Shown one piece after another: positions 41,554 through 54,142 of a DNA stretch of 64,000 bases. Under the pieces are notes generated by a model. The model was not told where the DNA came from. It saw only the letters and a list, made by a program, of their open reading frames with translations, and did not search any database. Source of the DNA: Clostridia bacterium (GTDB taxonomy: Bacteria > Bacillota > Clostridia > Christensenellales > QALW01); contig JAZQTV010000108.1 of the NCBI GenBank assembly GCA_045630945.1, positions 39,094-103,093 of the forward strand, read 5' to 3'. Position 1 is the stretch's first letter; each line of letters begins with the position of its first letter. A program made the translations under genes and the position numbers.

Positions 41554-42978
41554 ATGAAATACGTTGTAACGCCCAAGGAAATGCTTGAAGCCGAAAACAC
41601 CGCATTTGCTTCAGGACTTGAACCCTTAAAGGCAATGGATACCGCAGGAAATCATATATATGAATTTGCAAAAGCATTCGATCGCATTCTTGTTGTTGCC
41701 GGTGCAGGAAATAACGGCGGCGACGGCTTTAAGGCGGCTTGCGAACTACATAATTCAGGCAAAAGCGTAGACGTATTGTTTGTAGGCGACAAAAGCAAAT
41801 TAAGTGCCCATGCGCTTCATTTTTACGAAAAAGCTGTTTCGCTTATTACCGACGAAATTAAAGCTGATTACCAATTGGTTATAGATGCGCTGTTTGGAAT
41901 CGGCTTTAAGGGTACGCTTAAGGATGATTTTCTTGATGCCGTAAGGCTTATAAATTCATTTAAGGAAAAGGCGCACATACTTTCGGTGGATATTCCGTCA
42001 GGTCTTAACGGCTTGACCGGCGAGGCTGAAAATGCAGTCTGTGCTGATACCACGATTACGTTTCAAGCAAAAAAATTAGGACATATAATAGGCAAGGGCG
42101 CAGATTTTTCGGGCGAGCTTATCGTAAAGGATATCGGTATTGACCTAGCCTCCGCCGTGCTTTATCCCGAACCCGAGGACGTTGAATTAAATAAAATTGC
42201 CCCCACGGCACACAAGGGCACACAGGGGCATATAGGTATTATTGCAGGCTCATTGGGTATGGAAGGGGCGGCATTGCTTGCTTCCTCGGCGGCGATCAAA
42301 ACGGGTGCAGGCAAGGTTTCACTTGCAGTTGATAAGAATATTATAAGCAATTTTTCTCACCGCGCACCCGAAATTATGGTGACAAGCCGTGAAAGCACCC
42401 CCGATTTTATCAAGGATAAAAGCGTTGTGCTTTTCGGTTGCGGTATAGGCAGGGGTGCTGACAACAAGGAAATTCTTGACACCCTTATCAACAACTGTAC
42501 CTGTCCGTTGGTAATTGATGCAGACGGCTTGTTTTTCTTAACTAAGGAGCATTTAAGGAATGCAAAATGTCCCGTTATTTTAACACCCCATATGGCTGAA
42601 GCCGCACGGCTTTTTAATACGGATATTGTAACGCTTTTAAGTGCACCGATAGAAAATTGCCGTAAATTTCATCTTGAAACAGGCGCAACGATACTGTTAA
42701 AAAGCAATTATAATCTTACCGTTTCCTTTGATGGAATGTTCATAAGCCAATTTGGTTGTAAGGGAATGTCTACCGCAGGCAGTGGTGACGTGCTTGCAGG
42801 GCTTGTGGCAGGTGCGGTAAATCTTCAAAAAAATATTACCGAGGGCGTTTTGCTTGGTGCATATCTTCACGGCACGGCAGGACGGTATGCCGAAAAAGAA
42901 AAAACCGAATACGCAATGACCGCTTCGGATATAATAAACAATATTTATAATGCATTTAAAGAAAAAGCAGGGAAATAA
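41554..42978 (+). CDS. nnr: Bifunctional NAD(P)H-hydrate repair enzyme Nnr (epimerase + ADP-dependent dehydratase)
   Basis: The YjeF_N part has GAGNNGGDG. The carbohydrate-kinase part has HKGTQGH.GIIAGS..GAA and GSGDVLAG. Confidence 0.85.
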   Translation: MKYVVTPKEMLEAENTAFASGLEPLKAMDTAGNHIYEFAKAFDRILVVAGAGNNGGDGFKAACELHNSGKSVDVLFVGDKSKLSAHALHFYEKAVSLITDEIKADYQLVIDALFGIGFKGTLKDDFLDAVRLINSFKEKAHILSVDIPSGLNGLTGEAENAVCADTTITFQAKKLGHIIGKGADFSGELIVKDIGIDLASAVLYPEPEDVELNKIAPTAHKGTQGHIGIIAGSLGMEGAALLASSAAIKTGAGKVSLAVDKNIISNFSHRAPEIMVTSRESTPDFIKDKSVVLFGCGIGRGADNKEILDTLINNCTCPLVIDADGLFFLTKEHLRNAKCPVILTPHMAEAARLFNTDIVTLLSAPIENCRKFHLETGATILLKSNYNLTVSFDGMFISQFGCKGMSTAGSGDVLAGLVAGAVNLQKNITEGVLLGAYLHGTAGRYAEKEKTEYAMTASDIINNIYNAFKEKAGK

Positions 42979-42992: not shown

Positions 42993-43841
42993 TTATAATT
43001 TTTTGATCGCATCAACCACAGTTTCGCCTGCGGGGCGTTTTTTGATGGATATGTACTTTTCTTCAAGGAATTCTGCGTACTCCTTAAGGAACGGATAGCC
43101 TTTTAATTTATCAAGTTCTGCCTTAAACGTTTCAAGTCCCTCTTCATCGGTGTGGTCGGTTACACCTATGAACTGATCGATAACGTCCTTAAATAGTTCC
43201 ATTTTTTCTGCTTCATCAGGTGTTTGGGGAATAGGCTGAGGCTTTGCAAGCTCAGAAAAGCTACCCTCGCACGCAGTACGAAAATGCAAGAGCATGGTAG
43301 TAGGCAACAGTTCGTTTTTTAAAAGATTTACAATGTTTTCTCTTTTGCCACCGTTTATTATGTAGTTTATCGTGGGAACAACTATATAATATGACTGCGC
43401 GCTTGAAAAATTGGAACGGACTCTTGAAATATTTCTTACCTCGTCCTTTGTAATCTCAAGCACCATTTCACCCTCAAACTCATAAACAAGTCCCGTTTTC
43501 ATAAGGGATTCTATCTGCTCACTAAAAGTAAAAAGTTCCAGTGTGCTATCAGGTTTTCTTACAGAAAGCATCATCAACGCAGATATTTCCGCATTACTAA
43601 GCACATAACCGAGCCAGTTTAAGTCATACTGCTTATAGTCTTTTTTTTCTAACTTTTTTGTATTTACCGCATAATATATTCCGTCACATTTTTTGCCTAT
43701 AACCTTTTCTTTTCTTAACATTTCCATCATCTGCCGTGCAACAGAATAATCACTTTTTAAATGAAATTGAATATCGGCTATCGATACTTTATCCTTGTTT
43801 TTCAAAAAGGCGAATATAATTTTTTTAATTCCTTCTTCCAT
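42993..43841 (-). CDS. Winged-helix (FtsK-gamma/MarR-like wHTH) domain protein, remainder unknown
   Basis: N-terminal VSIADIQFHLKSDYSVARQMMEMLRKEKVIGKK.DGIYYAV has wHTH character. The 200-aa C-terminal part matches no family I recognise. AAGGAGG RBS. It is the last gene of the cluster. Confidence 0.45.
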   Translation of the reverse strand: MEEGIKKIIFAFLKNKDKVSIADIQFHLKSDYSVARQMMEMLRKEKVIGKKCDGIYYAVNTKKLEKKDYKQYDLNWLGYVLSNAEISALMMLSVRKPDSTLELFTFSEQIESLMKTGLVYEFEGEMVLEITKDEVRNISRVRSNFSSAQSYYIVVPTINYIINGGKRENIVNLLKNELLPTTMLLHFRTACEGSFSELAKPQPIPQTPDEAEKMELFKDVIDQFIGVTDHTDEEGLETFKAELDKLKGYPFLKEYAEFLEEKYISIKKRPAGETVVDAIKKL

Positions 43842-43865
43842 ATAAGTCCTCCTTTTTAAGAAAAC

Positions 43866-43887
43866 ACGTGGCGAATTATCGCCACGT
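43866..43887 (-). terminator. Internal hairpin (attenuator / partial terminator) between the Card1-like and wHTH genes
   Basis: Perfect 9-bp stem acgtggcga/tcgccacgt with a 4-nt loop. On the minus strand it is followed by GTTTTCTT and then the RBS of the next gene. Confidence 0.45.
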
Positions 43888-43889
43888 CT

Positions 43890-45125
43890 TTATCTTGACT
43901 TCAAGCCCGCCATAATCTTCAAGAGCTCTTTTTCATTTTTATCGGTAATATTATCTATAACTATTATGCCCATATCCTCAGCACGTTGACGGATGTACTT
44001 GCCTGTTTCATCCATTGCGTCAAGCGCAGTTGCAATAAGCACCTTTTTGGCGTACTTTCCGCCAAAGCGATGCGCAACGGTATTAAGCTTATAAAGCTCC
44101 TCCGCATCGAACGCACCGTTCTTACAGGAAATAAACATAGGCCAGATTCCGCGCATAGCGAGAATATCGATCTCGTTTTCAGTTTCGTATTTAACGTTTA
44201 AAATACCGTCCCAATCAATGCTTACACCGTTTACAACGTCATTGTACATTCTGTTGTTTTTATTATCGGTAGCTTGCTTAACGTAGTGGAACACTATCAT
44301 TTCAAGCACCTGACCTGCCTTGGTAAGACATTTTTTGACCTGCGGATTTTTAAACGTTATTTTGAATTCCGTTTCGTTTGAAGAATATGCGGTAATAACG
44401 CCTGCCTTTTTAAGTGCGGTGATTATATCCTTAAACTCAACGTATTCTTTATTTTTAAGCTGTCTTATAAGCCTGCTGTGCGAAATGCTGATGCTAAGTT
44501 CATTATCGACTGCGCATTCGCTTGCCGCCTGAAATACGTTTATCTGGGTATTCCACTTGCGCACGTCCGTCTTGCAGATATCCCACATTCTTTTGATATC
44601 CTCAACGAACTCACCGTCCATCAGCCACTCGTAAGTACCACGTGAAAACACGTTATTAGTATATTTGATATTTCCACCGTAAATGCGGATATTATCCCTT
44701 ACCGTGATAGCGGGGATACCCTCGGTAACAACGGTAATACCGTCTCTGTCACAATCTTCAACAGTACTGTTTCTTATGTTAAAGCGATGCATCTGTATGT
44801 GGCGCTCCTTATATTTCTCGCTTATTATACCAACCGCCACAAGATACAGGTCTTCACCGCCTGTAAGATCAAATATGCAATCAGGTTCCTCATCCACGAT
44901 TTTAGAAAGCGCATCCACGATACTGTCAAGCTTTTTGGAATCAAGGGGCATAGGAACAAAATCAATATGCTTGTCTCTGTCGGCAAAAAAGCTTTCGTAC
45001 AATTCCGTCTGCTTTATCAATTCCTCACGCCTGTTGCCTATTAAAATTACCTTTTCAGGTGCTTTTGCAAGACAGGCAACAATATTTTCGGTTGCGTTTT
45101 TATCAAAGAACTCAATATACGTCAT
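43890..45125 (-). CDS. Card1/Can2-like CARF + PD-(D/E)xK nuclease-fold protein (DUF1887 family), not CRISPR-associated here
   Basis: Start taken at ATG 45125 (MTYIEFFDKN), 1 nt after the anti-sigma stop. The CARF-like N-domain has ...VILIG... and FDLTGGEDLYLVAVG (compare the NxTGGTK loop of Card1). The C-domain has KAGQVLEMIVFHYV, NEIDILAM...(11)...FISCKNG and LYKLNTVAHRFGGKYAKKVLIAT. These parallel Card1 segments GGWFEEYVY, NELDVIYL...VIECKS and LYKLQAI..KFGLYVK as I recall them. Confidence 0.75.
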   Translation of the reverse strand: MTYIEFFDKNATENIVACLAKAPEKVILIGNRREELIKQTELYESFFADRDKHIDFVPMPLDSKKLDSIVDALSKIVDEEPDCIFDLTGGEDLYLVAVGIISEKYKERHIQMHRFNIRNSTVEDCDRDGITVVTEGIPAITVRDNIRIYGGNIKYTNNVFSRGTYEWLMDGEFVEDIKRMWDICKTDVRKWNTQINVFQAASECAVDNELSISISHSRLIRQLKNKEYVEFKDIITALKKAGVITAYSSNETEFKITFKNPQVKKCLTKAGQVLEMIVFHYVKQATDNKNNRMYNDVVNGVSIDWDGILNVKYETENEIDILAMRGIWPMFISCKNGAFDAEELYKLNTVAHRFGGKYAKKVLIATALDAMDETGKYIRQRAEDMGIIVIDNITDKNEKELLKIMAGLKSR

Positions 45126-45126
45126 T

Positions 45127-45363
45127 TTATTCTTTTGCTTCCAATTCCTCAATCATTGTTTTTTCGTCTTCATCAAAGACTTCGTTTATATCGCAAACGG
45201 CACCAATACCGTTCAAGCCGTCGTGTACGTTCTGAAATGCGCGAACCTTGTTAAAGCAGGTCTGACACCGCAAAATATGTGTGGTAACCTTTGATGCAAG
45301 CTCGCAATCAACCTTTTCGGTGCTAACAAAATCTATTATTTCATCAATTGTCAGATGTTTCAT
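45127..45363 (-). CDS. Small soluble anti-sigma factor, zf-HC2 (ZAS) type
   Basis: 78 aa. MKHLTIDEIIDFV.....HILRCQTC gives an exact H-x3-C-x2-C motif. No TM helix. It overlaps the upstream sigma-like gene by 20 nt. Confidence 0.6.
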   Translation of the reverse strand: MKHLTIDEIIDFVSTEKVDCELASKVTTHILRCQTCFNKVRAFQNVHDGLNGIGAVCDINEVFDEDEKTMIEELEAKE

Positions 45364-46168
45364 TTATATACTCCCGTTTGATAAGATTATTCATTCTGTT
45401 TACCCAGTCGCTTACGGTAGCCGCTCCGCCCTTTTTCATAAAGAACTCACCGTAAGTTACCTGCCCAAGAACACGGCCGTCACCGTATTCCTTTTTTAAG
45501 GCAGTATTTATTTTTTTAATCTGAGCTTCGCTGAATCTCATCCACGGCACACGTTCGGATGCTTTAAATATTACGTTACGCATTTTAAAAAGCGAAAGAT
45601 TTTCAAAATTCTTTACCACAAGTGCCTTGCTCTCGCTATTTGATACGTCAAAGGTAACAAGAATAACCGACTGTGCAAGCCACGTGAGAATTTTATAAAC
45701 GCTTGAATCTGAATTTACCACAATCCTGAAGGATATTTCAAGATTATCGTAAATATGCGGTGACGTTTCATAATCACCTGCGCTTATCATATCCTCTTCC
45801 TCTTCGTAAAAGCCTCGTTCCGAGGAAACCTTTATATATTCTTTACGGGCAAAATCCTTTTTAGTGTTTTTTGCAACCGTAAACATCCAATTTTTGAAGC
45901 CCTCAAAATCCCTGTTCAATTCACCCTCAGGACCGTTCTTCAAAAAGAAATGCGTAACACATTTTTTAATTATTTTATCCATTGATACGGAAAAAATGTC
46001 ATCCTCGTAACCTTTTCCCTTCAACAGACTGTCTGCATAGCACCATTTGGCGATGCTTGCCGTTAAAAGTGCCTGTGCAGATTCAAACATAGTATCGAAC
46101 CGTGCGCCTTTTTCATCAAAAAGCTCTTCAATTATCTGTTCAAATTCTTTTTCAGTAAAGCCTTGCAT
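45344..46168 (-). CDS. Sigma-70-family-like (ECF-type region 2 / region 4) protein, atypically long
   Basis: The region-2-like segment is DDIFSVSMDKIIKKCVTHFF...FKNWMFTVAKNTKKDFARK. The C-terminal region-4.2-like helix is GGAATVSDWVNRMNNLIKRE. It is paired with a ZAS anti-sigma. The call is tentative and by eye only. Confidence 0.45.
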   Translation of the reverse strand: MQGFTEKEFEQIIEELFDEKGARFDTMFESAQALLTASIAKWCYADSLLKGKGYEDDIFSVSMDKIIKKCVTHFFLKNGPEGELNRDFEGFKNWMFTVAKNTKKDFARKEYIKVSSERGFYEEEEDMISAGDYETSPHIYDNLEISFRIVVNSDSSVYKILTWLAQSVILVTFDVSNSESKALVVKNFENLSLFKMRNVIFKASERVPWMRFSEAQIKKINTALKKEYGDGRVLGQVTYGEFFMKKGGAATVSDWVNRMNNLIKREYINETSDN

Positions 46169-46200
46169 TTTGCCGTTCCTTTCATATAATGCTATATTGC

Positions 46201-46229
46201 ATTTTATAACATTTTTCGTAAAAAGTCAA
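46201..46229 (-). promoter_or_regulatory. Sigma-A-type promoter for the sigma/anti-sigma/Card1-like unit
   Basis: On the minus strand: TTGACT(46229-46224), 17-nt spacer, TAAAAT(46206-46201). The -35 context GTATTGACTTT is identical to the promoter at 51364-51392. Confidence 0.5.
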
Positions 46230-46247
46230 TACAGCATCATAGGAACT

Positions 46248-47882
46248 TTAAGGAATATACCGGTATTTCTCACTTGAAAAGCTTATTTTCTGTCCGCGGG
46301 CGCTTACGTCTGCCTGTTCGCCGTCAAATTCAGGGCACAGATAGCTTCTTTCCATTTTCGACCACAAAACGTCCTCACGCATCTGTGTAACGATGCATTC
46401 ACCGGGTGTGATGCTGTTAAGCTTGCTTACAGGCACAAGTGCAACAGTATCCTTTTCGTAGCGTTCGATAGTTTCACCGTTTCCGTTAAGCGCGGACATA
46501 GGCGAAATTATTGTTTTGTACCCGCATTCAAGAGAAAACTCACGCTTAGTTTCAGGATTGTTTGTTCCAAAGAAAATATGTGTATTAAGGTTATCCTTAA
46601 TTATTTCGGCAGTTTCCTTGCCGTACACGTTATTAAGCTGTGCATACGACTGAAGAATAAGCAAAAACCATATATTTCTTCCACCGCAGGCAGATATAAC
46701 CTTGTCAAAATCGTTAAATCTGGGCAAATTTCCGAACTCGTCAAGCAAGAAGTAGAACGGGCGTTCAAGTGAAATGCCTTTTTTACGGGATATTGCTATA
46801 AGCTCGCTGTACAGGTTGCTTAAAAACATACTTATTATCTCGTAATGCAAACATTCCTCATCCTTATACGTTACAAAAATAACCGTAGGCTGATCACCGT
46901 CAAGTTCACTCATTTCAAATGAGTTTGCACAGGTTATTCTGCGCACCGACGTATCACGAAACTTGCTTATTTTTGCCGCAAATGCGGATGAAATACATCT
47001 TCTTGTGTTATCAGCCTGCTCGATTATGCACTTTCTTGCAAGCTGATGCGCCTTTGACGTTTCAATATCTCTGTTACGGAAATATCCGTTATCGTAATTG
47101 GTTTTGCTATCTGAAAAGGAATCGAAAATTCTTAACACGGTATCAAAGGAAAAGTTATCCTCGGTTATTTTTCCCGATGCGCTATCCTCAAGCATACCGT
47201 AGATGATAGCCTTAAACAAATCCCTTGCCGAGTCATCCCAATACGGATCCTTTTGATTGGTTGCGGTAATAACCGTTTGTGAAAGAATGGTTATACCCTT
47301 TTCCACCTCGTCGTAGTATCCGTCCTTCACCTCGAATATATCTCTTTCAAGCTCTGCCTGATCATCATATATCCTGCCGTTAAACTTATTACGGGGACCT
47401 TCAGGAGTCTGCACCGCTTCAATCTGCTTTTCTACCTCAAGACTTTTTTGATAAAGGCGGTAATATTTAGTTAAGGGGTTCCAGCAATCGCTGTGATGAT
47501 AATCGGTAAAGTCAAGAAGTATTACCCTGTACCCTGCGTTTTCAAACTTTTTGGCATTCTTTATATACAGTTCCTGCTTGGGATCGCTTATTACCATACT
47601 TGGCTTATTCTTTTTGTTTAAAAGAACGTTAATGGTAGGGATAACGAAGCCCGTTGTTTTGCCGCTTCGGGTTGCACCTATGGCAAGTAGGTGGGTATTG
47701 GGGGTAAAGGTAACCTCTAATTTACCCTTGGCATCTCTTGTTATACAAATCGGTATGCCGTCAATATTCTGTTTTGAAAGGTTTGAAAACTTATACGTGC
47801 TGCTTCTGTGTGCTGCCACGTATTCTTCAGCACGCGTTATCTTTGCGTTTTCATAATCCTTGAAAATATCGATGTTAAGCAT
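46248..47882 (-). CDS. VirD4/TraG/TraD-type (type IV coupling protein-like) P-loop ATPase lacking transmembrane helices
   Basis: Walker A is LLAIGATRSGKTTGFVIPT. Walker B is PFYFLLDEFGNLP. It also has RNIWFLLILQSYAQLNNVYG (the T4CP arginine/Q-box-like block). There is no N-terminal hydrophobic segment. Its start abuts the stop of the upstream gene. Confidence 0.75.
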   Translation of the reverse strand: MLNIDIFKDYENAKITRAEEYVAAHRSSTYKFSNLSKQNIDGIPICITRDAKGKLEVTFTPNTHLLAIGATRSGKTTGFVIPTINVLLNKKNKPSMVISDPKQELYIKNAKKFENAGYRVILLDFTDYHHSDCWNPLTKYYRLYQKSLEVEKQIEAVQTPEGPRNKFNGRIYDDQAELERDIFEVKDGYYDEVEKGITILSQTVITATNQKDPYWDDSARDLFKAIIYGMLEDSASGKITEDNFSFDTVLRIFDSFSDSKTNYDNGYFRNRDIETSKAHQLARKCIIEQADNTRRCISSAFAAKISKFRDTSVRRITCANSFEMSELDGDQPTVIFVTYKDEECLHYEIISMFLSNLYSELIAISRKKGISLERPFYFLLDEFGNLPRFNDFDKVISACGGRNIWFLLILQSYAQLNNVYGKETAEIIKDNLNTHIFFGTNNPETKREFSLECGYKTIISPMSALNGNGETIERYEKDTVALVPVSKLNSITPGECIVTQMREDVLWSKMERSYLCPEFDGEQADVSARGQKISFSSEKYRYIP

Positions 47883-49526
47883 CTAGCTCACCCCCTCTAT
47901 AAAGCCAAGTCCCTTGCCGCGTTTATGTACGGTAAGATTATTTTCGCTCATAAGCCCTCTTACGCACTCAACCGTAATGATTCTGTCGCCCTCGTACACG
48001 GCGTTTCTTAATGCCGAGTCAACTATCTGGCGGAAGCTTTTTGCATCAAGCGTTGCAAGCACACCGTCAACGCCTTCCTCAAACACCTTGCCGTCAAGAC
48101 CGAACACCTTGGAGCGTACGTTTATTATTGAGCGCACTGCCTGAATTTTTTCTTTTTCGTCCATTCTTCTTGTACGAAGAACGTCACATTCTTCAGAAAG
48201 CTTTTCAAGCACCTGATTTTTCTCGGATGCAAACAGTATGAATACTGCGCCCGAAATATCCATTGATACTGCAGGATTGAACAGCTTGAAGCGTTTTCTG
48301 TACTCGTAATCAAGCAGATTGCTTAAATCATCAAGCATCCCCTTATCAAGCTCCTCGCAGTCCTTTATCATAAACACGGTACGTGCAGTCTTGGTTTCAG
48401 AAAGTCCCCTCAACACAAGGTTTTCACCTGTGCCGGAAAAGTCACGCTGACTCAGCGCGCCCGCATCAAGCTCGATAACAGGAGTATCCTTAAGTCCTTT
48501 TTTGATGGCGTAGTAGTACATATCCCTTACGTACTCCTCTTGCGAAACTATCATCAGGGGTGCGTACGCCCTTTCGGAGCAATTACTTAAAACCGAAAGG
48601 CTTTGAAGTATCTTTTTAATTTCACCCTCGCGCCTTACAGGCACCGAATCAAACAGCTTGGGTTCAAAACTTATTTTTTGCTCCGTCTTAACGTCAAAGG
48701 GAATGTCGTTAAGCTGTGCCGCCACGTCCTTTTGCTTTTTAAGAAGGATTTTTTCCTTATCCTCATCAGAAAGCAAGGGTGAAAAAACCACCTTGGCAAA
48801 TTCCCTGTCGTACACGCCTGCGTTTACGGTACCTAACAGGCAAGCCTTTTCAATTATTCTTGCGCGGCGGTTCTTTTTAGGCATCATACCCTCGCCCGTT
48901 TTTGCTAAAACGTGCTCAAACACGTTTTTAGCACCTGCTGAACGGGACACCGTATAGAGAATATCAAGGTATAAATCCTTGTTCTCTTTATCGTACTTAA
49001 TGCCCATAAGGCAGTTGAACAGGTCGTTCCACCTTGCACCGTGGCGTATTCTTTTTACTGCATTAGGCGCATCCTTATAAATGCTGATGCCGTGATATTC
49101 AAGGAACGAAAGTGTCGCCATAGCCTGCACCGAGCCATGCTCAGACAGGAACACAAGCTCCGTTTCCACGGTCTTGGGTGTAAGCTCGCCCATCCCCTTG
49201 AACAGTTGTTTTTTTATGCTTAACGCTTCACGCTTTTGAGCAAGCAAGGTTTTATCGCATTCACTAAGTCTGATATCCTGTCCACTTTTTTTAGCGAACT
49301 CAATCGTCCTTATAAGCCTTTCGTAGCTCTCGATATTCTTTAAGCCCTTAAGTTGTTCACTTCTTGATTCGAGGTAAAAATCCTTAACGTTTTCTTCATC
49401 AAGGCAGAACACCTCAGCAAGCTCGCGGTATATTTTCTTCAGCGTTTTTTCTTCTACGAAGTCGCCTATAAGCGCTTCAAGAATGAAGAACTGTGTAAGG
49501 AACGGCTCTATTAAGTAGTAATTCAT
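47883..49526 (-). CDS. Hypothetical protein: Sel1-like helical N-part + Clp-D2-like AAA+ module with a degenerate P-loop
   Basis: The C-terminal 230 aa align by eye with the ClpA/B D2 module. Parallels are IELDAGALSQRDF (DMSEY..), VFMIKDCEELDKGMLDDLSNLLD (V.LFDEIEKAH.DV.N.LLQ.LD) and VSMDISGAVFILFASEKN (VDF.NT.IIMTSN). Where GPTGVGKT is expected the sequence reads LMIVSQEE. The N-part GSVQAMATLSFLEYHGISIYKDAPNAVKRIRHGARWND is Sel1-repeat-like. Confidence 0.4.
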   Translation of the reverse strand: MNYYLIEPFLTQFFILEALIGDFVEEKTLKKIYRELAEVFCLDEENVKDFYLESRSEQLKGLKNIESYERLIRTIEFAKKSGQDIRLSECDKTLLAQKREALSIKKQLFKGMGELTPKTVETELVFLSEHGSVQAMATLSFLEYHGISIYKDAPNAVKRIRHGARWNDLFNCLMGIKYDKENKDLYLDILYTVSRSAGAKNVFEHVLAKTGEGMMPKKNRRARIIEKACLLGTVNAGVYDREFAKVVFSPLLSDEDKEKILLKKQKDVAAQLNDIPFDVKTEQKISFEPKLFDSVPVRREGEIKKILQSLSVLSNCSERAYAPLMIVSQEEYVRDMYYYAIKKGLKDTPVIELDAGALSQRDFSGTGENLVLRGLSETKTARTVFMIKDCEELDKGMLDDLSNLLDYEYRKRFKLFNPAVSMDISGAVFILFASEKNQVLEKLSEECDVLRTRRMDEKEKIQAVRSIINVRSKVFGLDGKVFEEGVDGVLATLDAKSFRQIVDSALRNAVYEGDRIITVECVRGLMSENNLTVHKRGKGLGFIEGVS

Positions 49527-49627
49527 AAATCATGCCTCCTTCTGCGCATTCGCAATTTTCTTTCTTCATACAATATAACGTAACTATCCTTGTTTTTTCG
49601 CACACCTCCTAAATATTAAAAATCGGT

Positions 49628-51277
49628 TTAAAACGGAAGCTCATCCTCAAACTCATATGAATCTTCAATTAAATTGAATTTGTTGCGCCACTTTTCATAT
49701 GCATCAAGCAATGCAGGAACGTCCTCAAAAGCATTATTGTTTGCCGTGCGGTGCTGTTTTACCTTTTTTTCATCCAGCTCGATTGCGCCCACAGGCTTGC
49801 CCTCAAAGGATACGCACACAATAGGGTTACTATCCGCCTTCCAATCTATAAGACAGTTGTTAAGCGATTCACCCAGCTTGCGCACTTGTGCAAGGTTTTT
49901 TACCGAAGCAAATTCAAAGCCATCCACCACGGTATCGAAAATATCCTTGTGGGGCATACGCATGGGCACGGAAAAATCACAGGCTATTTTGTAATTTTCA
50001 AAATAATCGCCCGACCATTTTTTAATTTCCTTTTTGCGCATCGGCTCACTTAAAAGCGCAAATTCCGATGCGTAAAAGCAAAGTCTTCCCCAGCTGCTTA
50101 TAATGCTATCGGTAAACGTGACCGCCGAAACGTTTTTGGAATATTCGTTAAGGAACGTATCAAGCGCAGGCTTTATTTTAAGATCGCTTAAAATTTTAAA
50201 TGCGGACTTTGATTTTAACACCTTTAAAAAGCAATCAACGTTGTTTGTATAACTGAAAAGCAGTTCGCATTCGTTTTTATAAAACAAAAGTTCGGGGTTT
50301 ATAAAAAATTGCTTTCTTACCGATTTCGCCCTGGGCAGAGTACTGTTTTCGTATAAGCTTATTGCTTTTTCGGGATTTTTAAGATTTTTCTTAACGCCTG
50401 TAAACGAACTGTCAACCTGACGCACAACCTGCCAGAAGCTACCTGCTTCTTCCCTTTCGGTAACGTACGGAATTGCATTATAAAATCCCTTATCAAAGCC
50501 TGTGAACTGTGTGTATGTAATAAGCTTTTCTATATCAAGCATTCCGTCATTTTTGATTTCAAGAAGCTTTTTAATGGCTTTATTCACTCTTGAATCAGTT
50601 TTAAGCACCGTATCAACTGCACTTGAAGTAAGAATATACGGGTACTTGGTAATATCGCGCTTTATAAACACCCTGTTTTCCTTATCCGATACCTCCACGT
50701 AGGTTTTACCCTTTTTCACGTTGAATATGAGGTGTTGATATATAGGGAAATTTATAACCGCATTACCGACAAGCTGCTCAAGCACAGGCATTTCTTTCAT
50801 ATTTATTATCTCGCAGGAAACAGTTAATTTACCACGCCTGAAATACACGCTTACGTCGCGCATAGTTATATACGGCATAGAAACCTTTGAGCATCTTGGG
50901 CACTTAAACGCACCCTTTGGCTTAACAAACGGATTGAATACAAGGTCTCTTTCATCCTCGCAGAGCATACGCATCTGTCTTTCGCCCCATTTTTCCACTC
51001 TGCTTCGCTTTATAAGTCCGTGTTCTTTTTTATTGGTTGAAAAAATGGGATTAAGGAAACGTGCATATGCAGGTACCCTGTTAAGACAATGCGGACATTC
51101 AACGTAGTGCTGTGTAAGCACCGCGGTGTTTTTATCGTCGTTTCTTATTGCCTCGGTAAACCTTCTTTGCAACTTGCCAAGAAGCAGTTCTACAGCAATA
51201 TCTATTGAAATTTCCTTTTCACGCTTCTTTAAAATATAGCCGTCTGCAAGCTGGAAGTTGAATTTTTCTCTTTTCAC
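49628..51277 (-). CDS. PcfJ-like domain protein with an N-terminal zinc ribbon
   Basis: GTG start with a GGAAAGGA RBS. It has CPHC...(about 63)...CPRC. The C-terminal KNLAQVRKLGESLNNCLIDWKADSNPIVCVSFEGKPVGAIEL resembles the PcfJ-like core (L..EG..M.HCV..Y...I..v). An acidic tail follows. Confidence 0.5.
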   Translation of the reverse strand: MKREKFNFQLADGYILKKREKEISIDIAVELLLGKLQRRFTEAIRNDDKNTAVLTQHYVECPHCLNRVPAYARFLNPIFSTNKKEHGLIKRSRVEKWGERQMRMLCEDERDLVFNPFVKPKGAFKCPRCSKVSMPYITMRDVSVYFRRGKLTVSCEIINMKEMPVLEQLVGNAVINFPIYQHLIFNVKKGKTYVEVSDKENRVFIKRDITKYPYILTSSAVDTVLKTDSRVNKAIKKLLEIKNDGMLDIEKLITYTQFTGFDKGFYNAIPYVTEREEAGSFWQVVRQVDSSFTGVKKNLKNPEKAISLYENSTLPRAKSVRKQFFINPELLFYKNECELLFSYTNNVDCFLKVLKSKSAFKILSDLKIKPALDTFLNEYSKNVSAVTFTDSIISSWGRLCFYASEFALLSEPMRKKEIKKWSGDYFENYKIACDFSVPMRMPHKDIFDTVVDGFEFASVKNLAQVRKLGESLNNCLIDWKADSNPIVCVSFEGKPVGAIELDEKKVKQHRTANNNAFEDVPALLDAYEKWRNKFNLIEDSYEFEDELPF

Positions 51278-51321
51278 GTTAATGCACGTCCTTTCCGTTT
51301 ATATTATAAACGTTTTAATCC

Positions 51322-51334
51322 TGCGAATTTCGCA
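51322..51334. promoter_or_regulatory. Perfect palindrome in the leader of the PcfJ-like gene (candidate operator)
   Basis: TGCGAA-T-TTCGCA, located between the -10 box (51364) and the start codon (51277). Confidence 0.3.
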
Positions 51335-51363
51335 AGCATAGAAAAATTTAGTGAGGGAACGAA

Positions 51364-51392
51364 ATAATATCACATTTTTTTATTAAAGTCAA
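51364..51392 (-). promoter_or_regulatory. Near-consensus extended -10 sigma-A promoter for the PcfJ-like/AAA+/T4CP-like unit
   Basis: On the minus strand: TTGACT(51392-51387), 17-nt spacer ending in TGA, TATTAT(51369-51364). The context is GTATTGACTTT. Confidence 0.55.
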
Positions 51393-51400
51393 TACCATTT

Positions 51401-51436
51401 AAAAAAAATTACACTCTGCAAAAAAATTGCAGAGTG
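51401..51436 (-). terminator. Intrinsic terminator ending the permease/C26/TIR/GATase operon
   Basis: cactctgc(51412-51419)/gcagagtg(51429-51436). On the minus strand it is followed by TAATTTTTTTT. Confidence 0.7.
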
Positions 51437-51442
51437 CATATT

Positions 51443-52477
51443 TTAAATCTTAAATAAATATTGGGGTGCAGTAACCGTTTCGTTTGCGCCTTCACGTATA
51501 ACCGTGCGTTTTTTTAAAACGCCCTGCTTATCAAGCGTTTGAAGTGCTTCGTATGTAAGCGGGTAATCCGAATACCCTTCATACCCATCAAGCACCGTAT
51601 CCACCGCATCAACACATTGCCAGAAATCAAGTTCATTCTTTTCAAGCGCACCTTTAAGTGCGCCGTACGCCCTGATACGTGATTCGGTATCCATAGGTTT
51701 TACGCTTAAGGGTGCGCTAAAGGGTGCGATTTCAACGTGATCGGCATATATTTTACCCGATGAGCAGGCAGGTATAAGCACTGCTTCTGAAGCATCCCCA
51801 GGGAACTTATCGGGCATTGAAGCCACGTATGCGCCGTGGGATGCAAAGCTTACGTACAGGGGAGCATCTATTCTTGCAAAGGATATGGCATCCGGTTCAT
51901 CCGTATTAATGCTAAGCCCCACTATTTCGGCAGGCATCTTACAAAACGCTTTTGCCATAGCCTGCGCACCGTCGTCACCACGTTCCTTATTGCTTGCAAT
52001 AAGGTGACACATAACGTCACTTATGTGCAGATATGCGCCGTCTGCAAGCTGAGGATAATGCTCACTTTCTATGCCCGTAAGATACGAATGCATAATTCTG
52101 CCGCCTTCGTGAAGGCTTCGGGCTATTTTTTCATACTCGCGCAGATTTCCTTTAAAAAATCCGTTACTACCCGTTGCGGCGTATGCAAGATATGGCTTGC
52201 CGTCAAAATCGCTTACGAACGGTTGCGCCCAATTATCACCGCCGCCTGCATTTGAACGGCTATGTATTATACCTAAATTGCCGGAGAAATTTTTTCCGTC
52301 AGTTTTTTCTAAAAGATCGCTTAACGCACCTGTAAGCTTTGCAAGGTTCATTTTACCGTCACAAATAGTGGTTATGCCTGTGTAATACCCCCCTGCATAA
52401 GCTTCTTGTTTTCTTATGAGCTCAATAAGAATAGGCGCCGCGGCTTTTTTGCCTACGTAACCTGCCATATTGCACAT
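51443..52477 (-). CDS. Class II (Ntn-type) glutamine amidotransferase-domain protein with an unknown C-terminal domain
   Basis: MCNMAGYVGKKAAAPILIELIRKQE...GIIHSRSN parallels the GlmS/PurF-type N-terminus (MCGIVGYVG..AAPIL..L..LEYRG...GIGHTRWA). No SIS domain is present. The last 130 aa or so are unassigned. Confidence 0.6.
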   Translation of the reverse strand: MCNMAGYVGKKAAAPILIELIRKQEAYAGGYYTGITTICDGKMNLAKLTGALSDLLEKTDGKNFSGNLGIIHSRSNAGGGDNWAQPFVSDFDGKPYLAYAATGSNGFFKGNLREYEKIARSLHEGGRIMHSYLTGIESEHYPQLADGAYLHISDVMCHLIASNKERGDDGAQAMAKAFCKMPAEIVGLSINTDEPDAISFARIDAPLYVSFASHGAYVASMPDKFPGDASEAVLIPACSSGKIYADHVEIAPFSAPLSVKPMDTESRIRAYGALKGALEKNELDFWQCVDAVDTVLDGYEGYSDYPLTYEALQTLDKQGVLKKRTVIREGANETVTAPQYLFKI

Positions 52478-52489
52478 TTATTTTTCCCC

Positions 52490-54142
52490 CTATTTGTATG
52501 ACCAATTCTGATTAGAAAGTCTGATTCTTGAAACCTTACCCGTTTCCTTCTCCATATCTATGTTGATACTGTAATCTCTTTCCTTGTATTCGGAATATGA
52601 CCACATATGTGAATACGAGCCCTCATAATAATCAAGTTTATCAGACGAACTGTTTATACTGTCAAAGGAGCTATTGAAATCCACACCCAACGCTATCTGC
52701 ACGTTCACCTTATCGTAATCTGACACACTAACCGTATATACTGCGCAGTTTTCAACAGCAACCTGATATTCGGAATAATTTTTCACTATCACAGAAAGCC
52801 TCGCTTCACCCTTACTTAACGTAATGCTTGCAGTATTACCCGCAGGAACGTCGCCTGAGCTTTCCTTAATATTCCAGCCATCATTAATAAATTCACTTAC
52901 AGGTGCGGGTAATTCGTACAGCTTGCCTTCAACGGAAATAACGCTTGAAAATCCGCTTCCCATACTACTTGGTGCAACGTATTTTGATAAATATTCAGGT
53001 CTTTCAGTCTTTGTTTCGGTTTTTTCGTTGCTTTCCTTTTGATTGATAACGGTAATACTTGAATACTTAAGGTAGTCTGCTTTCGTATAGCACATAAACG
53101 AAACGCCGTTACTGTTGTTTTTATCACTGTAATATCTTAACGAAACGTAATCGGTACCGTCGTTTCTGTATCCGGGTGCGCCGTAAGCTTCAACTATTGC
53201 ATCAACGTCCGATAAAACAGTTATTCCTTTTGCAAGCTTGATATCGGTTATACTGCCATCCCATTCGATACCGCCCACAAGACAATCCTTAACCTCTCTT
53301 GCGTGACCGCTTGTGTTATATACCATTACGCCGATTTTCTTGCCGTTTTTGGACATATTGAAACTAAGAGTTTCTTTACCAAGAACCTTTGAGGTATCGC
53401 TTGTGCCTGATGAAGATATTGTCCAACCCATATTGCTTAAAACGGAATAATCGCAGGGAAGCTGAATGATTCCATCGCCCATATCAATGGTGAAATCAAA
53501 AAGTTCATCCGACATTTCGGGTGCAATGTAAACAGGCGGAAGCATATCTGAAGGATTTTCCGTTGCCGTAGGCGAGGATGCATCATCCTTATCCTTAGGA
53601 AGCGCAACGGTAATTACTATCGCAATTACAAGAACTATCGCAACCGCAATCAAGAAGAACGTTTTGCTTTTAAAGAAGCTTACCTCCTCCTTTTTCTCCT
53701 CTTTCTTTTCAGGTGTGCTTGCGGTAAAGCTTATACCGTCGCCACCACCAATAATGCCCTTTAATTCGCGAAGCATTTTTTCAATGGCGGCAGATTTATT
53801 TTCATATGCCGCATAACGCTGAACGTTTGTAAGGTAGAAATTAAAGTCATCCTTAAGCTTACAGTTTTCAAGCATAAACGGCAATATAACCTTGCCTTCG
53901 TTTATGGCGATATCAACCTCTCTTGAAACCCACTTGGATGCCTGTGATTTTGAGGATAAAATAAGCACAAACGCTTTTGCGCCCCTTATTGCCTGAGGTA
54001 TTTCGGAAGCGTAGCTTGCGCCGCCCTGAATGCAATCGGGTGCCATCCAACAGGAAATTCCGTTTGCCTCAAGCACGTCCCTTACCCAACGTGCTTCTTC
54101 AAGCTCTTCAGCCTTATAGCTTATAAATACGTCCTTCTGCAT
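52490..54142 (-). CDS. TIR-domain protein with a single TM helix and two tandem extracytoplasmic repeat domains
   Basis: N-terminal TIR_2 pattern: DVFISYKAEE...A.WV...L...GISCWMAP.....G..Y..EI..AI..AK.FVLILS..S..SKWVSREVD (Glu75 at the catalytic-Glu position). The TM helix FFLIAVAIVLVIAIVITVAL spans residues about 161-181 (nt about 53600-53662). Two domains of about 150 aa follow that align to each other (GIIQLPCDYSVLSNMGWTISSSG.../GKLYELPAPVSEFINDGWNIKESSG..., ending ITVINQ / IRLSNQ). Confidence 0.8.
   Translation of the reverse strand: MQKDVFISYKAEELEEARWVRDVLEANGISCWMAPDCIQGGASYASEIPQAIRGAKAFVLILSSKSQASKWVSREVDIAINEGKVILPFMLENCKLKDDFNFYLTNVQRYAAYENKSAAIEKMLRELKGIIGGGDGISFTASTPEKKEEKKEEVSFFKSKTFFLIAVAIVLVIAIVITVALPKDKDDASSPTATENPSDMLPPVYIAPEMSDELFDFTIDMGDGIIQLPCDYSVLSNMGWTISSSGTSDTSKVLGKETLSFNMSKNGKKIGVMVYNTSGHAREVKDCLVGGIEWDGSITDIKLAKGITVLSDVDAIVEAYGAPGYRNDGTDYVSLRYYSDKNNSNGVSFMCYTKADYLKYSSITVINQKESNEKTETKTERPEYLSKYVAPSSMGSGFSSVISVEGKLYELPAPVSEFINDGWNIKESSGDVPAGNTASITLSKGEARLSVIVKNYSEYQVAVENCAVYTVSVSDYDKVNVQIALGVDFNSSFDSINSSSDKLDYYEGSYSHMWSYSEYKERDYSINIDMEKETGKVSRIRLSNQNWSYK

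Follow-up and report, generated by a model that had tools for sequence, protein, structure and literature searches.

A CARF nuclease gene and its Ser-Cys-Lys motif

The gene analyzed here encodes a Can2/Card1-like protein, a CARF sensor joined to a PD-(D/E)xK nuclease, and lies on the minus strand at 43890..45125 (stop codon included) of a 64,000-nucleotide stretch of the Clostridia bacterium contig JAZQTV010000108.1, hereafter the window. The protein belongs to a previously undescribed, large Can2/Card1 clade of gut Clostridia. Its open reading frame (ORF) starts at the ATG at 45125 and gives a product of 411 amino acids; a 420-residue form, extended to a TTG codon, was rejected, as M1 is the N-terminus in 121/121 relatives and T2 is found in 119/121. 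The exact query protein was not found in the contig index.

The Rossmann-like CARF domain spans approximately residues 1–135 (44721..45125, minus strand, as are all features of the gene), as delimited by profile alignment to residues 13–110 of the SthCan2 CARF domain and by the secondary structure of a model. It contains the ligand loop T88-G-G-E91-D92 (44850..44864), which reads T-G-G-T-K in all described Can2 clades; residues 85–99, the region around this loop, are FDLTGGEDLYLVAVG. The nuclease domain spans approximately residues 262–405 (43911..44342), with a match to Pfam PF09002 over residues 270–400. Three elements of the Can2 motif E-ExD-(E/S)CK (defined in PMC10783487) were located within it: E275, the first Glu, in the AGQVLE helix (44301..44303); E318-I-D320, the metal-binding ExD strand (44166..44174), where D320 is encoded by GAT at 44168-44166; and S333-C334-K335 (44121..44129), encoded by TCC TGT AAG at 44129-44121 and aligned to the E-C-K of Can2 and VC1899. 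An initial annotation, made from the sequence alone, had recognized a Card1/Can2-type CARF nuclease with Ser-Cys-Lys where Card1 enzymes have Glu-x-Lys, and with the Asp of the EID block present. All of this stands: the codons are exact, S333 aligns with the catalytic Glu, and the family assignment is borne out by PADLOC, profile alignment and Foldseek, as follows.

The PADLOC model CARF4--CARF_PDDEXK matches the full length of the protein (residues 3–404, 1.9e-33), while the Pfam family Card1_endonuc (PF09002/DUF1887) scores barely above its cutoff (26.6 vs 26.4 bits). A PDB search with the single query sequence gave no useful match, and a family profile, built from 37 relatives, was required for alignment to PDB structures. 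It aligns F-V-S-C-K of the query with V-I-E-C-K of SthCan2 (7bdv), I-I-E-C-K of VC1899 (1xmx) and F-V-E-C-K of the Dysgonamonadaceae Can2 (8bao). An AlphaFold2 model of the protein (predicted local distance difference test, pLDDT, 88.6; predicted template modeling score, pTM, 0.86) gave full-length Foldseek matches to VC1899, Can2, Cdn1, Card1 and TbrCan2, with E-values from 5e-21 to 5e-13, and the top 20 are all VC1899, Can2, Cdn1 or Card1.

The best structural match is VC1899 of Vibrio cholerae (1XMX, E 4.7e-21), the founding structure of DUF1887. It keeps E-C-K, unlike the query; its ligand site is divergent, and cyclic tetra-adenylate (cA4) elicited no response from it in vitro (PMC7969007). 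SthCan2 (7BDV), TresuCard1 (6WXW/6XL1), the Can2 structure 8BAO and Cdn1 (9U49) are built of the same two domains as the query, including a helical insertion, and the Can2, Card1 and Cdn1 structures match the model with E-values of 6e-20 to 6e-15 and template modeling (TM) scores of 0.61–0.80. The nuclease blocks E..ExD..xCK..YK and the TGG loop are common to these proteins and the query. However, the query is only 13–17% identical to them and has a Ser for the catalytic Glu of E-C-K.

I next considered how general this substitution is. The query's subfamily comprises 2335 homolog clusters at E<=1e-3, which argues that the gene is real, and a sister subfamily, at ∼34% identity to the query, comprises 755 sequence clusters at the same threshold, so that the clade exceeds 3000 sequence clusters in animal and human gut Clostridia. 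The query's subfamily is carried by 331 species-representative genomes, and all named records are Clostridia-class gut metagenome-assembled genomes, or MAGs (Oscillospiraceae, Acutalibacteraceae, Ruminococcus, Faecousia). Relatives were not found in plasmid or phage collections, nor in the IMG/VR viral contigs, and a mobile-element or anti-defence origin was dropped on this ground. E275, E318, D320, S333, C334 and K335 are invariant in the 120 full-length homologs of the closest set (45–68% identity), in 153/153 gene copies from genome and metagenome contigs, and in 120/120 members of the sister subfamily. S-C-K is the normal configuration of the clade and not an oddity.

Because the whole catalytic set is kept in all ∼390 relatives at about 35–50% overall identity, I read the protein as an active enzyme rather than a decayed one, and consider it very probable that it is enzymatically active. 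Published work points the same way. Jinek and colleagues give the Can2 motif as E-ExD-(E/S)CK (PMC10783487), and the query carries its Ser variant. TbrCan2 of Thermoanaerobacter brockii (a clade 1 Can2, 8Q3Y), with the motif E-ExD-SxTTS-K, has Ser356 at the position of Card1 Glu308 and SthCan2 Glu291; this residue contacts Mn2+ through a water molecule (outer sphere), the S356A variant is impaired, and the enzyme is an active cA4-dependent single-stranded DNase and RNase despite the Ser (PMC10783487). Two-metal catalysis can accommodate a Ser here. The comparison has limits: TbrCan2 has no Lys two residues past the Ser, and instead has a later Lys369 and the DNA-binding motif SxTTS, whereas the present clade keeps the Lys of S-C-K. 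Likewise, NxTGGTK is retained in TbrCan2, which is a member of type III-D loci; the present clade has neither trait. The S-C-K configuration of this clade is, judging from these sequences, very probably active, and the view of the initial annotation that it is unusual for the family, or a sign of impairment, finds no support in the ∼390 relatives and the published active Ser variant.

Nucleases of the Cfr10I/NgoMIV type, with PD..S-x-K, have a relocated acidic residue, a Glu or Asp on the helix past the S-x-K strand. The initial annotation had raised such a migrated residue, for which E343 is the candidate. The query's subfamily keeps it in 120/121 sequences, but the sister S-C-K subfamily has Ala there in 110/120, which weakens the analogy, as E343 is not a general compensation.

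Two sequence features may be recorded here. Residues 124–129 of the CARF domain, DCDRDG (44739-44756, minus strand), form a D-x-D-x-D-G hairpin that is invariant in the query's subfamily and absent in the sister subfamily and in a copy discussed below (L170); it resembles the DxDxDG calcium-binding motif. In addition, proteins P0307 and P0315 (699 amino acids) of the sister subfamily are natural fusions of an S-C-K Card1-like protein with a metallo-beta-lactamase fold (PF00753).

CRISPR linkage of the relatives

A search for CRISPR arrays in the window found none, and no Cas proteins are encoded by its 55 other ORFs (PADLOC at 1e-8), in agreement with the initial annotation, which had seen no type III system there. 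It had also called the gene an orphan; this is true of the window but not of the family, as relatives are found inside III-B loci. The neighborhoods of the relatives were surveyed from two sides. On the nuclease side, 153 loci (designated L and a number) were collected with up to 10 kb of flank, their ORFs were called and clustered, and 79 loci have at least 4 kb on both sides (hereafter well-flanked). On the Cas10 side, 221 homologs of the Cas10 of locus L085 were gathered, and the loci of six were retrieved.

Six of the 153 nuclease-side loci (5/79 well-flanked ones) adjoin CRISPR-Cas, all six of them of the CorA-type III-B, and the nucleases embedded in complete loci of this kind, with Cas6, Cmr1-6, CorA and mostly a DEDD phosphodiesterase, are 34–49% identical to the query, no further from it than nearly the whole family compared. 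The L085 nuclease, at 49% identity, is about as near to the query as almost every relative compared, and its locus reads nuclease - Cas6 - CorA - Cmr1 - Cas10 - Cmr3 - Cmr4 - Cmr5 - Cmr6. L044 reads nuclease - DEDD exonuclease (DEDDh) - CorA - Cas6 - array - RT-Cas1 - array, where RT is reverse transcriptase. The nuclease lies upstream of Cas6 - Cmr1 - Cas10 - Cmr3-5 in L163, L158 and L159; CorA and DEDD come after the Cmr genes in the first two, and the contig of L159 stops short of that point. Finally, Cmr4-6 - DEDD - CorA lie a few genes upstream of the nuclease in L077. On a neighbor-joining tree the CRISPR-linked members occupy four separate positions.

On the Cas10 side, CorA is present in 6/6 loci and a detectable DEDD in 3/6. 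An S-C-K nuclease immediately follows the Cmr operon in L170 and L171, and in L167/L168 one is found 19 kb from the Cas10 locus on a single 36-kb contig. In the MAG JAMPDR01, an orphan S-C-K nuclease (L049) is accompanied by a Cas10 locus (L165) on another scaffold. No other Cas families were found among the 69 recurrent neighbor families of the nuclease.

As far as sequence comparison goes, the clade is new among Can2/Card1 proteins in three respects: it fails NxTGGTK, its members in type III loci are tied exclusively to CorA-type III-B, and most of its copies are dispersed outside CRISPR loci. Because relatives lie in III-B loci, and an orphan copy shares a MAG with such a locus, the protein is best read as an active, probably trans-acting ancillary nuclease; whether the window copy does act in trans in its own genome I would put at even odds. 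The initial annotation had granted that its protein would be ordinary if S-C-K were common in CRISPR-linked homologs, or if a type III locus lay elsewhere in the genome, and this is largely what was found, with S-C-K homologs inside III-B loci and, in a relative, an orphan copy and a locus in one MAG. With most copies detached from CRISPR loci, the clade bears on the reach of type III signals in trans within a genome.

Several further observations were made on these loci. The two arrays of L044 (15760-16040 and 19365-19548) are short, have a common 29-nt repeat, CTTTCATTACCTCTATAAGGAATTGATAC, and flank the RT-Cas1 fusion, 4.5 kb off the nuclease. L021 and L081 also show candidate arrays, but these are coding repeats and not CRISPR. 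In L169 (19291-21581), a CorA type III-B locus has immediately downstream of it a gene for a 1272-residue protein with a Tubulin_2 domain. L172 (5021-8772) holds three tandem paralogs (401, 415 and 418 amino acids) with 51–72% mutual identity and no Pfam match; these lie beside an orphan nuclease and were considered as relatives of it, and rejected as unrelated.

The sensor pocket and its candidate ligand

By itself the S-C-K motif amounts to a published, catalytically competent Can2 variant, and the potential news lies in the sensor. All seven Can2 clades described so far share the conserved ligand motif NxTGGTK (PMC10783487), and the cA4 contacts common to Can1 and Can2 correspond to S19, T42, K99 and Y118 of SthCan2 (PMC7969007). 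The query has D-L-T-G-G-E-D instead of NxTGGTK. S19, T42 and K99 were mapped to the query via the profile alignment, and the pocket lining is read from sequence rather than coordinates. S19 corresponds to position 8, which is Asp or Glu in 112/121 sequences, T42 to position 31 (Asp in 86/121, Asn in 13/121) and K99 to position 92, Asp or Glu in 121/121. T88-G89-G90 is invariant in the closest homolog set, and where Can2/Card1 proteins have TGGTK the loop is T-G-G-(E/D)-(D/E). The sister subfamily has T-G-G-K-E, with D8 in 115/120 (position 8 is acidic in 116/120) and an acidic position 92 in 120/120, so that the two subfamilies together have an acidic position 92 in 241/241 sequences. The initial annotation had proposed to check the conservation of the ligand pocket. 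On this alignment the pocket is strongly conserved in the clade, but three cA4 contacts are changed, the change in the ligand loop having been missed by that annotation, and the charge appears inverted at the phosphate-binding positions.

The CRISPR-linked relatives suggest what such a pocket may recognize. CorA with a DEDD or NrN phosphodiesterase, beside Cmr1-6, is the signature of systems that make SAM-AMP, an adduct of S-adenosylmethionine (SAM) (PMC10600005, PMC12255297). A neighborhood of this class, absent from the window, is found around the relatives in L044, L077, L085, L158/159/163, L167-168, L170 and L171; members of the clade share their loci with CorA, DEDD and Cmr1-6, as in the III-B (and III-D2) systems that pair a CorA effector with NrN/DEDD or a SAM-AMP lyase. 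Effectors with different messengers are almost never found in one locus (Hoikkala et al., PMC11229360). The methionine moiety of SAM is argued to turn the ligand's charge there from negative to positive, and two acidic residues of the Bacteroides fragilis Cas10, D70 and E151, have been tied to SAM binding (Chi et al. 2023, PMC10600005). The L085 Cas10 matches PDB 9lq5_B (E 2e-23), which I infer from matching residue numbers to be the B. fragilis enzyme; it has Asp and Glu at the positions equivalent to D70 and E151, and GGDD is present. Both acidic residues are kept in 120/120 homologs of this Cas10, with GGDD or SGDD. The charge argument made by Chi et al. 2023 for Cas10 is paralleled by the acidified sensor pocket of the nuclease clade.

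Since the pocket charge is inverted, and the clade loci are of the CorA/DEDD/Cmr class with the SAM-associated Cas10 residues, the ligand may be SAM-AMP, or a related molecule with the positively charged methionine moiety of SAM, and not cA4. I hold this specific assignment tentatively, at somewhat less than even odds. The more general reading, that the clade consists of Can2/Card1 nucleases of CorA-type III-B signaling, mostly detached from their loci and with a SAM-AMP-like ligand, has a probability of roughly 60%.

An ordinary Can2 activated by cA4 or by cyclic hexa-adenylate (cA6) is an unlikely alternative, in which the acidic loop would reflect neutral drift or metal-mediated binding and the CorA loci would use cyclic oligoadenylates. 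Every characterized Can2, Card1 or Cdn1 does use cA4 (or cA6), the TGG triplet is retained, and cA6 signaling has been proposed for some CorA systems (PMC11229360, PMC12830947). However, an acidic residue in place of the loop Lys in every sequence of both subfamilies, together with the changed S19 and T42 equivalents, indicates conservation and not drift. Moreover, the linked loci are III-B, with DEDD and with the Cas10 D70/E151 equivalents throughout, and not of the III-D Csm6-2/CorA class.

The same loci bear on the direction of the activity. CorA immunity requires degradation of the messenger (PMC12255297), and in the retrieved parts of L085 and L170, both with an adjacent nuclease, neither DEDD nor NrN nor a lyase was identified, as might be expected if the PD-(D/E)xK site were an off-switch that degrades SAM-AMP or another messenger, like NrN/DEDD. 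This is very improbable: DEDD accompanies the nuclease in L044, L163 and L171, degradation of the activator is not known for any Can2-family enzyme (PMC12825302), and the nuclease domain keeps a DNA/RNA-cleaving architecture.

In the mechanism proposed for a CorA-type III-B ancillary nuclease, the CARF domains of a homodimer would bind the small nucleotide signal, and this would switch on the C-terminal metal-dependent PD-(D/E)xK nuclease, which would then cut DNA and/or RNA non-specifically. The catalytic set would be E275, E318-x-D320 and S333-C-K335, with Ser333 probably holding a metal via water, by analogy with Ser356 of TbrCan2. Detached copies, the window gene included, would respond in trans to a III-B locus elsewhere in the genome.

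The SAM-AMP pathway has been described as poorly characterized (PMC12669027). In the literature searched, up to mid-2026, CorA is the only known SAM-AMP receptor, and no CARF protein or nuclease responding to this messenger is reported; CorA itself sits in the membrane and has a sensor domain of its own, unlike the CARF nucleases of this clade. A bolder and correspondingly more doubtful proposal, to which I give about one chance in three, is that this is the first CARF sensor to have switched its specificity from cyclic oligoadenylate to SAM-AMP (or SAM-AMP2), and a second family of SAM-AMP effectors, which has spread widely outside CRISPR loci in gut Clostridia with the YbjN/RyR/AAA-M41 module described below; the module may provide further arms of the pathway, with a sigma/anti-sigma arm in some genomes. 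If true, a soluble and easily assayed nuclease would be a second SAM-AMP effector and a tractable reporter of the messenger, and the clade would be a natural experiment in the re-specification of a CARF pocket, with three cA4 contacts changed and two of them always acidic.

Several points weigh against the main reading, that of CorA-type III-B ancillary nucleases with a SAM-AMP-like ligand. Only 6/153 loci (5/79 well-flanked) are CRISPR-adjacent, and most copies are orphan or lie in a different conserved module, so that the ligand of the copies that are not CRISPR-adjacent could differ. Two of the six Cas10-side loci have no S-C-K nuclease within 10 kb. Action in trans is seen by proxy, as only the window of the source genome is visible, and the link between L049 and L165 rests on MAG binning, which can err. 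The architecture of CARF dimers suits symmetric cyclic ligands, whereas SAM-AMP is small and asymmetric. Finally, the placement of D8, D31, E91 and D92 as lining the pocket comes from the alignment only.

Neighboring genes in the window and the recurrent module

The nuclease gene is part of an island of approximately 42993-54142, bounded by housekeeping genes at 41554-42978 and from 54160; all island features given here are on the minus strand. Directly past the nuclease stop codon is a terminator-like hairpin (43866..43887) of 9 bp, 6 of them GC, with a T-rich tail behind it. Upstream, a 78-residue ORF (45127..45363) stops 1 nt before the nuclease ATG; it carries an invariant zinc anti-sigma-like motif, H29-x3-C33-x2-C36, and its anti-sigma identity is supported by neither a hidden Markov model nor a PDB match. 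Its start is overlapped by 20 nt by a gene (45344..46168) for a 274-residue, weakly sigma-70/ECF-like protein (ECF, extracytoplasmic function), with TIGR02937 at E 0.0067, below cutoff, and a profile match to ECF sigma region 2 at E 1.7. Upstream of this gene lies a promoter-like TTGACT-17-TAAAAT (46201..46229), a consensus match only. From their layout, the three genes form an apparent unit running from promoter-like site to terminator.

Such an arrangement recalls CalpL-CalpT-CalpS, where a cA4-activated SAVED-Lon protease, an anti-sigma and an ECF sigma act together, as the window also pairs a sensor with anti-sigma-like and sigma-like genes. The initial annotation had suggested on this basis an impaired CARF sensor whose output would be protein-protein, acting on a translationally coupled anti-sigma. 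The 1-nt gap in the window stands, but the coupling is not conserved across loci: the sigma-like gene is present in 13/153 and the anti-sigma-like gene in 11/153, mostly with two YbjN-like genes between them and the nuclease, so that the pair accompanies less than 10% of loci. CRISPR-controlled sigma/anti-sigma signaling does exist, in CalpLTS, and proteases (AAA-M41, ClpP) recur near the nuclease. Nevertheless, a dead domain would not be expected to keep its catalytic residues invariant in ∼390 sequences, the Ser is compatible with activity, the CalpL sensor has a protease where the window sensor has a nuclease, and the sigma-like identity is itself weak. An impaired sensor of this kind is the least probable of the explanations considered, and a CalpL/T/S-like transcriptional output is a weak possibility.

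The island further contains, upstream, a VirD4/TraG-like coupling ATPase (46248..47882), which recurs near the nuclease in 13 loci and scores 238.8 against the CD1115 family, just under the cutoff of 250; its family is also beside the nuclease in the CRISPR-linked L163 and L077. Farther upstream lie the genes for a 547-residue protein that has Sel1-like repeats and, weakly, a Lon-like AAA+ module (47883..49526), and for a 549-residue protein without assigned function whose CxxC pairs are conserved (49628..51277), each recurring in 6 loci. A 344-residue unknown protein is also encoded upstream of the nuclease within the island, at the far edge of which is a 550-residue TIR-domain protein (52490..54142). 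Downstream of the terminator lies a 282-residue winged-helix-like protein (42993..43841), which recurs in 6 loci. A scan of the neighboring window genes identified no type IV secretion genes besides this ATPase gene, and a conjugative element was rejected, in view of the absence of further transfer genes among these neighbors and of the housekeeping genes from 54160.

Roughly every second well-flanked locus has the nuclease inside a conserved gene array. This consists of two YbjN-like genes, the nuclease, a ∼600-residue membrane protein with TrkA_N-like Rossmann and RyR domains, a ∼1170-residue protein with two AAA+ domains and Peptidase_M41, a second membrane RyR protein (700–950 amino acids), a 95-residue RyR protein and a TerB-like protein, sometimes with ClpP and the VirD4-like ATPase (for example L063 2302-13583 and L073 1832-17424). 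Parts of it also stand beside CorA III-B loci (L163 546-9823, L168 1-9985). No description of a YbjN/RyR/TerB/M41 module was found in the literature searched; its genes may add accessory functions to the same pathway, or form a system of their own into which the nuclease was recruited.

That this module occurs in roughly one well-flanked locus in two, against ∼6% with Cas genes, gives some weight to a CRISPR-independent effector or sensor, whose signal would come from island or module genes (TIR, RyR/Rossmann or an unrecognized cyclase) in a Thoeris- or Panoptes-like manner. CARF effectors outside CRISPR are known (Panoptes papers), and TIR proteins recur: in addition to that of the window, a TIR and TPR protein is encoded directly downstream of the nuclease in 7 loci (e.g., L015 2011-5265), and a TIR-kinase lies near it in L003 (15633-17579). 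This recurrence may be plain defence-island clustering, or it may mark a signal source. However, none of the island and module proteins scanned (Pfam and PADLOC, with PDB profiles for two families) was recognized as a cyclase, mCpol or CD-NTase; family F12 has no detectable relative, and family F15 has weak Sel1 and Lon-like AAA+ similarity only. Furthermore, 28/79 well-flanked loci are without these partners, some copies being alone amid housekeeping genes, and the module genes beside the CorA III-B loci L163 and L168 fit an accessory role equally well. I regard a CRISPR-independent origin of the signal as distinctly improbable, less so than an off-switch and more so than activation by cA4 or cA6.

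Lastly, other ORFs of the window gave further PADLOC matches, to mad3 (two proteins, best 2.4e-26), MzaA (7e-18), mad1 (1.5e-12), AriA (5.5e-9) and PDC-M62A, and the window may hold other defence-related genes.

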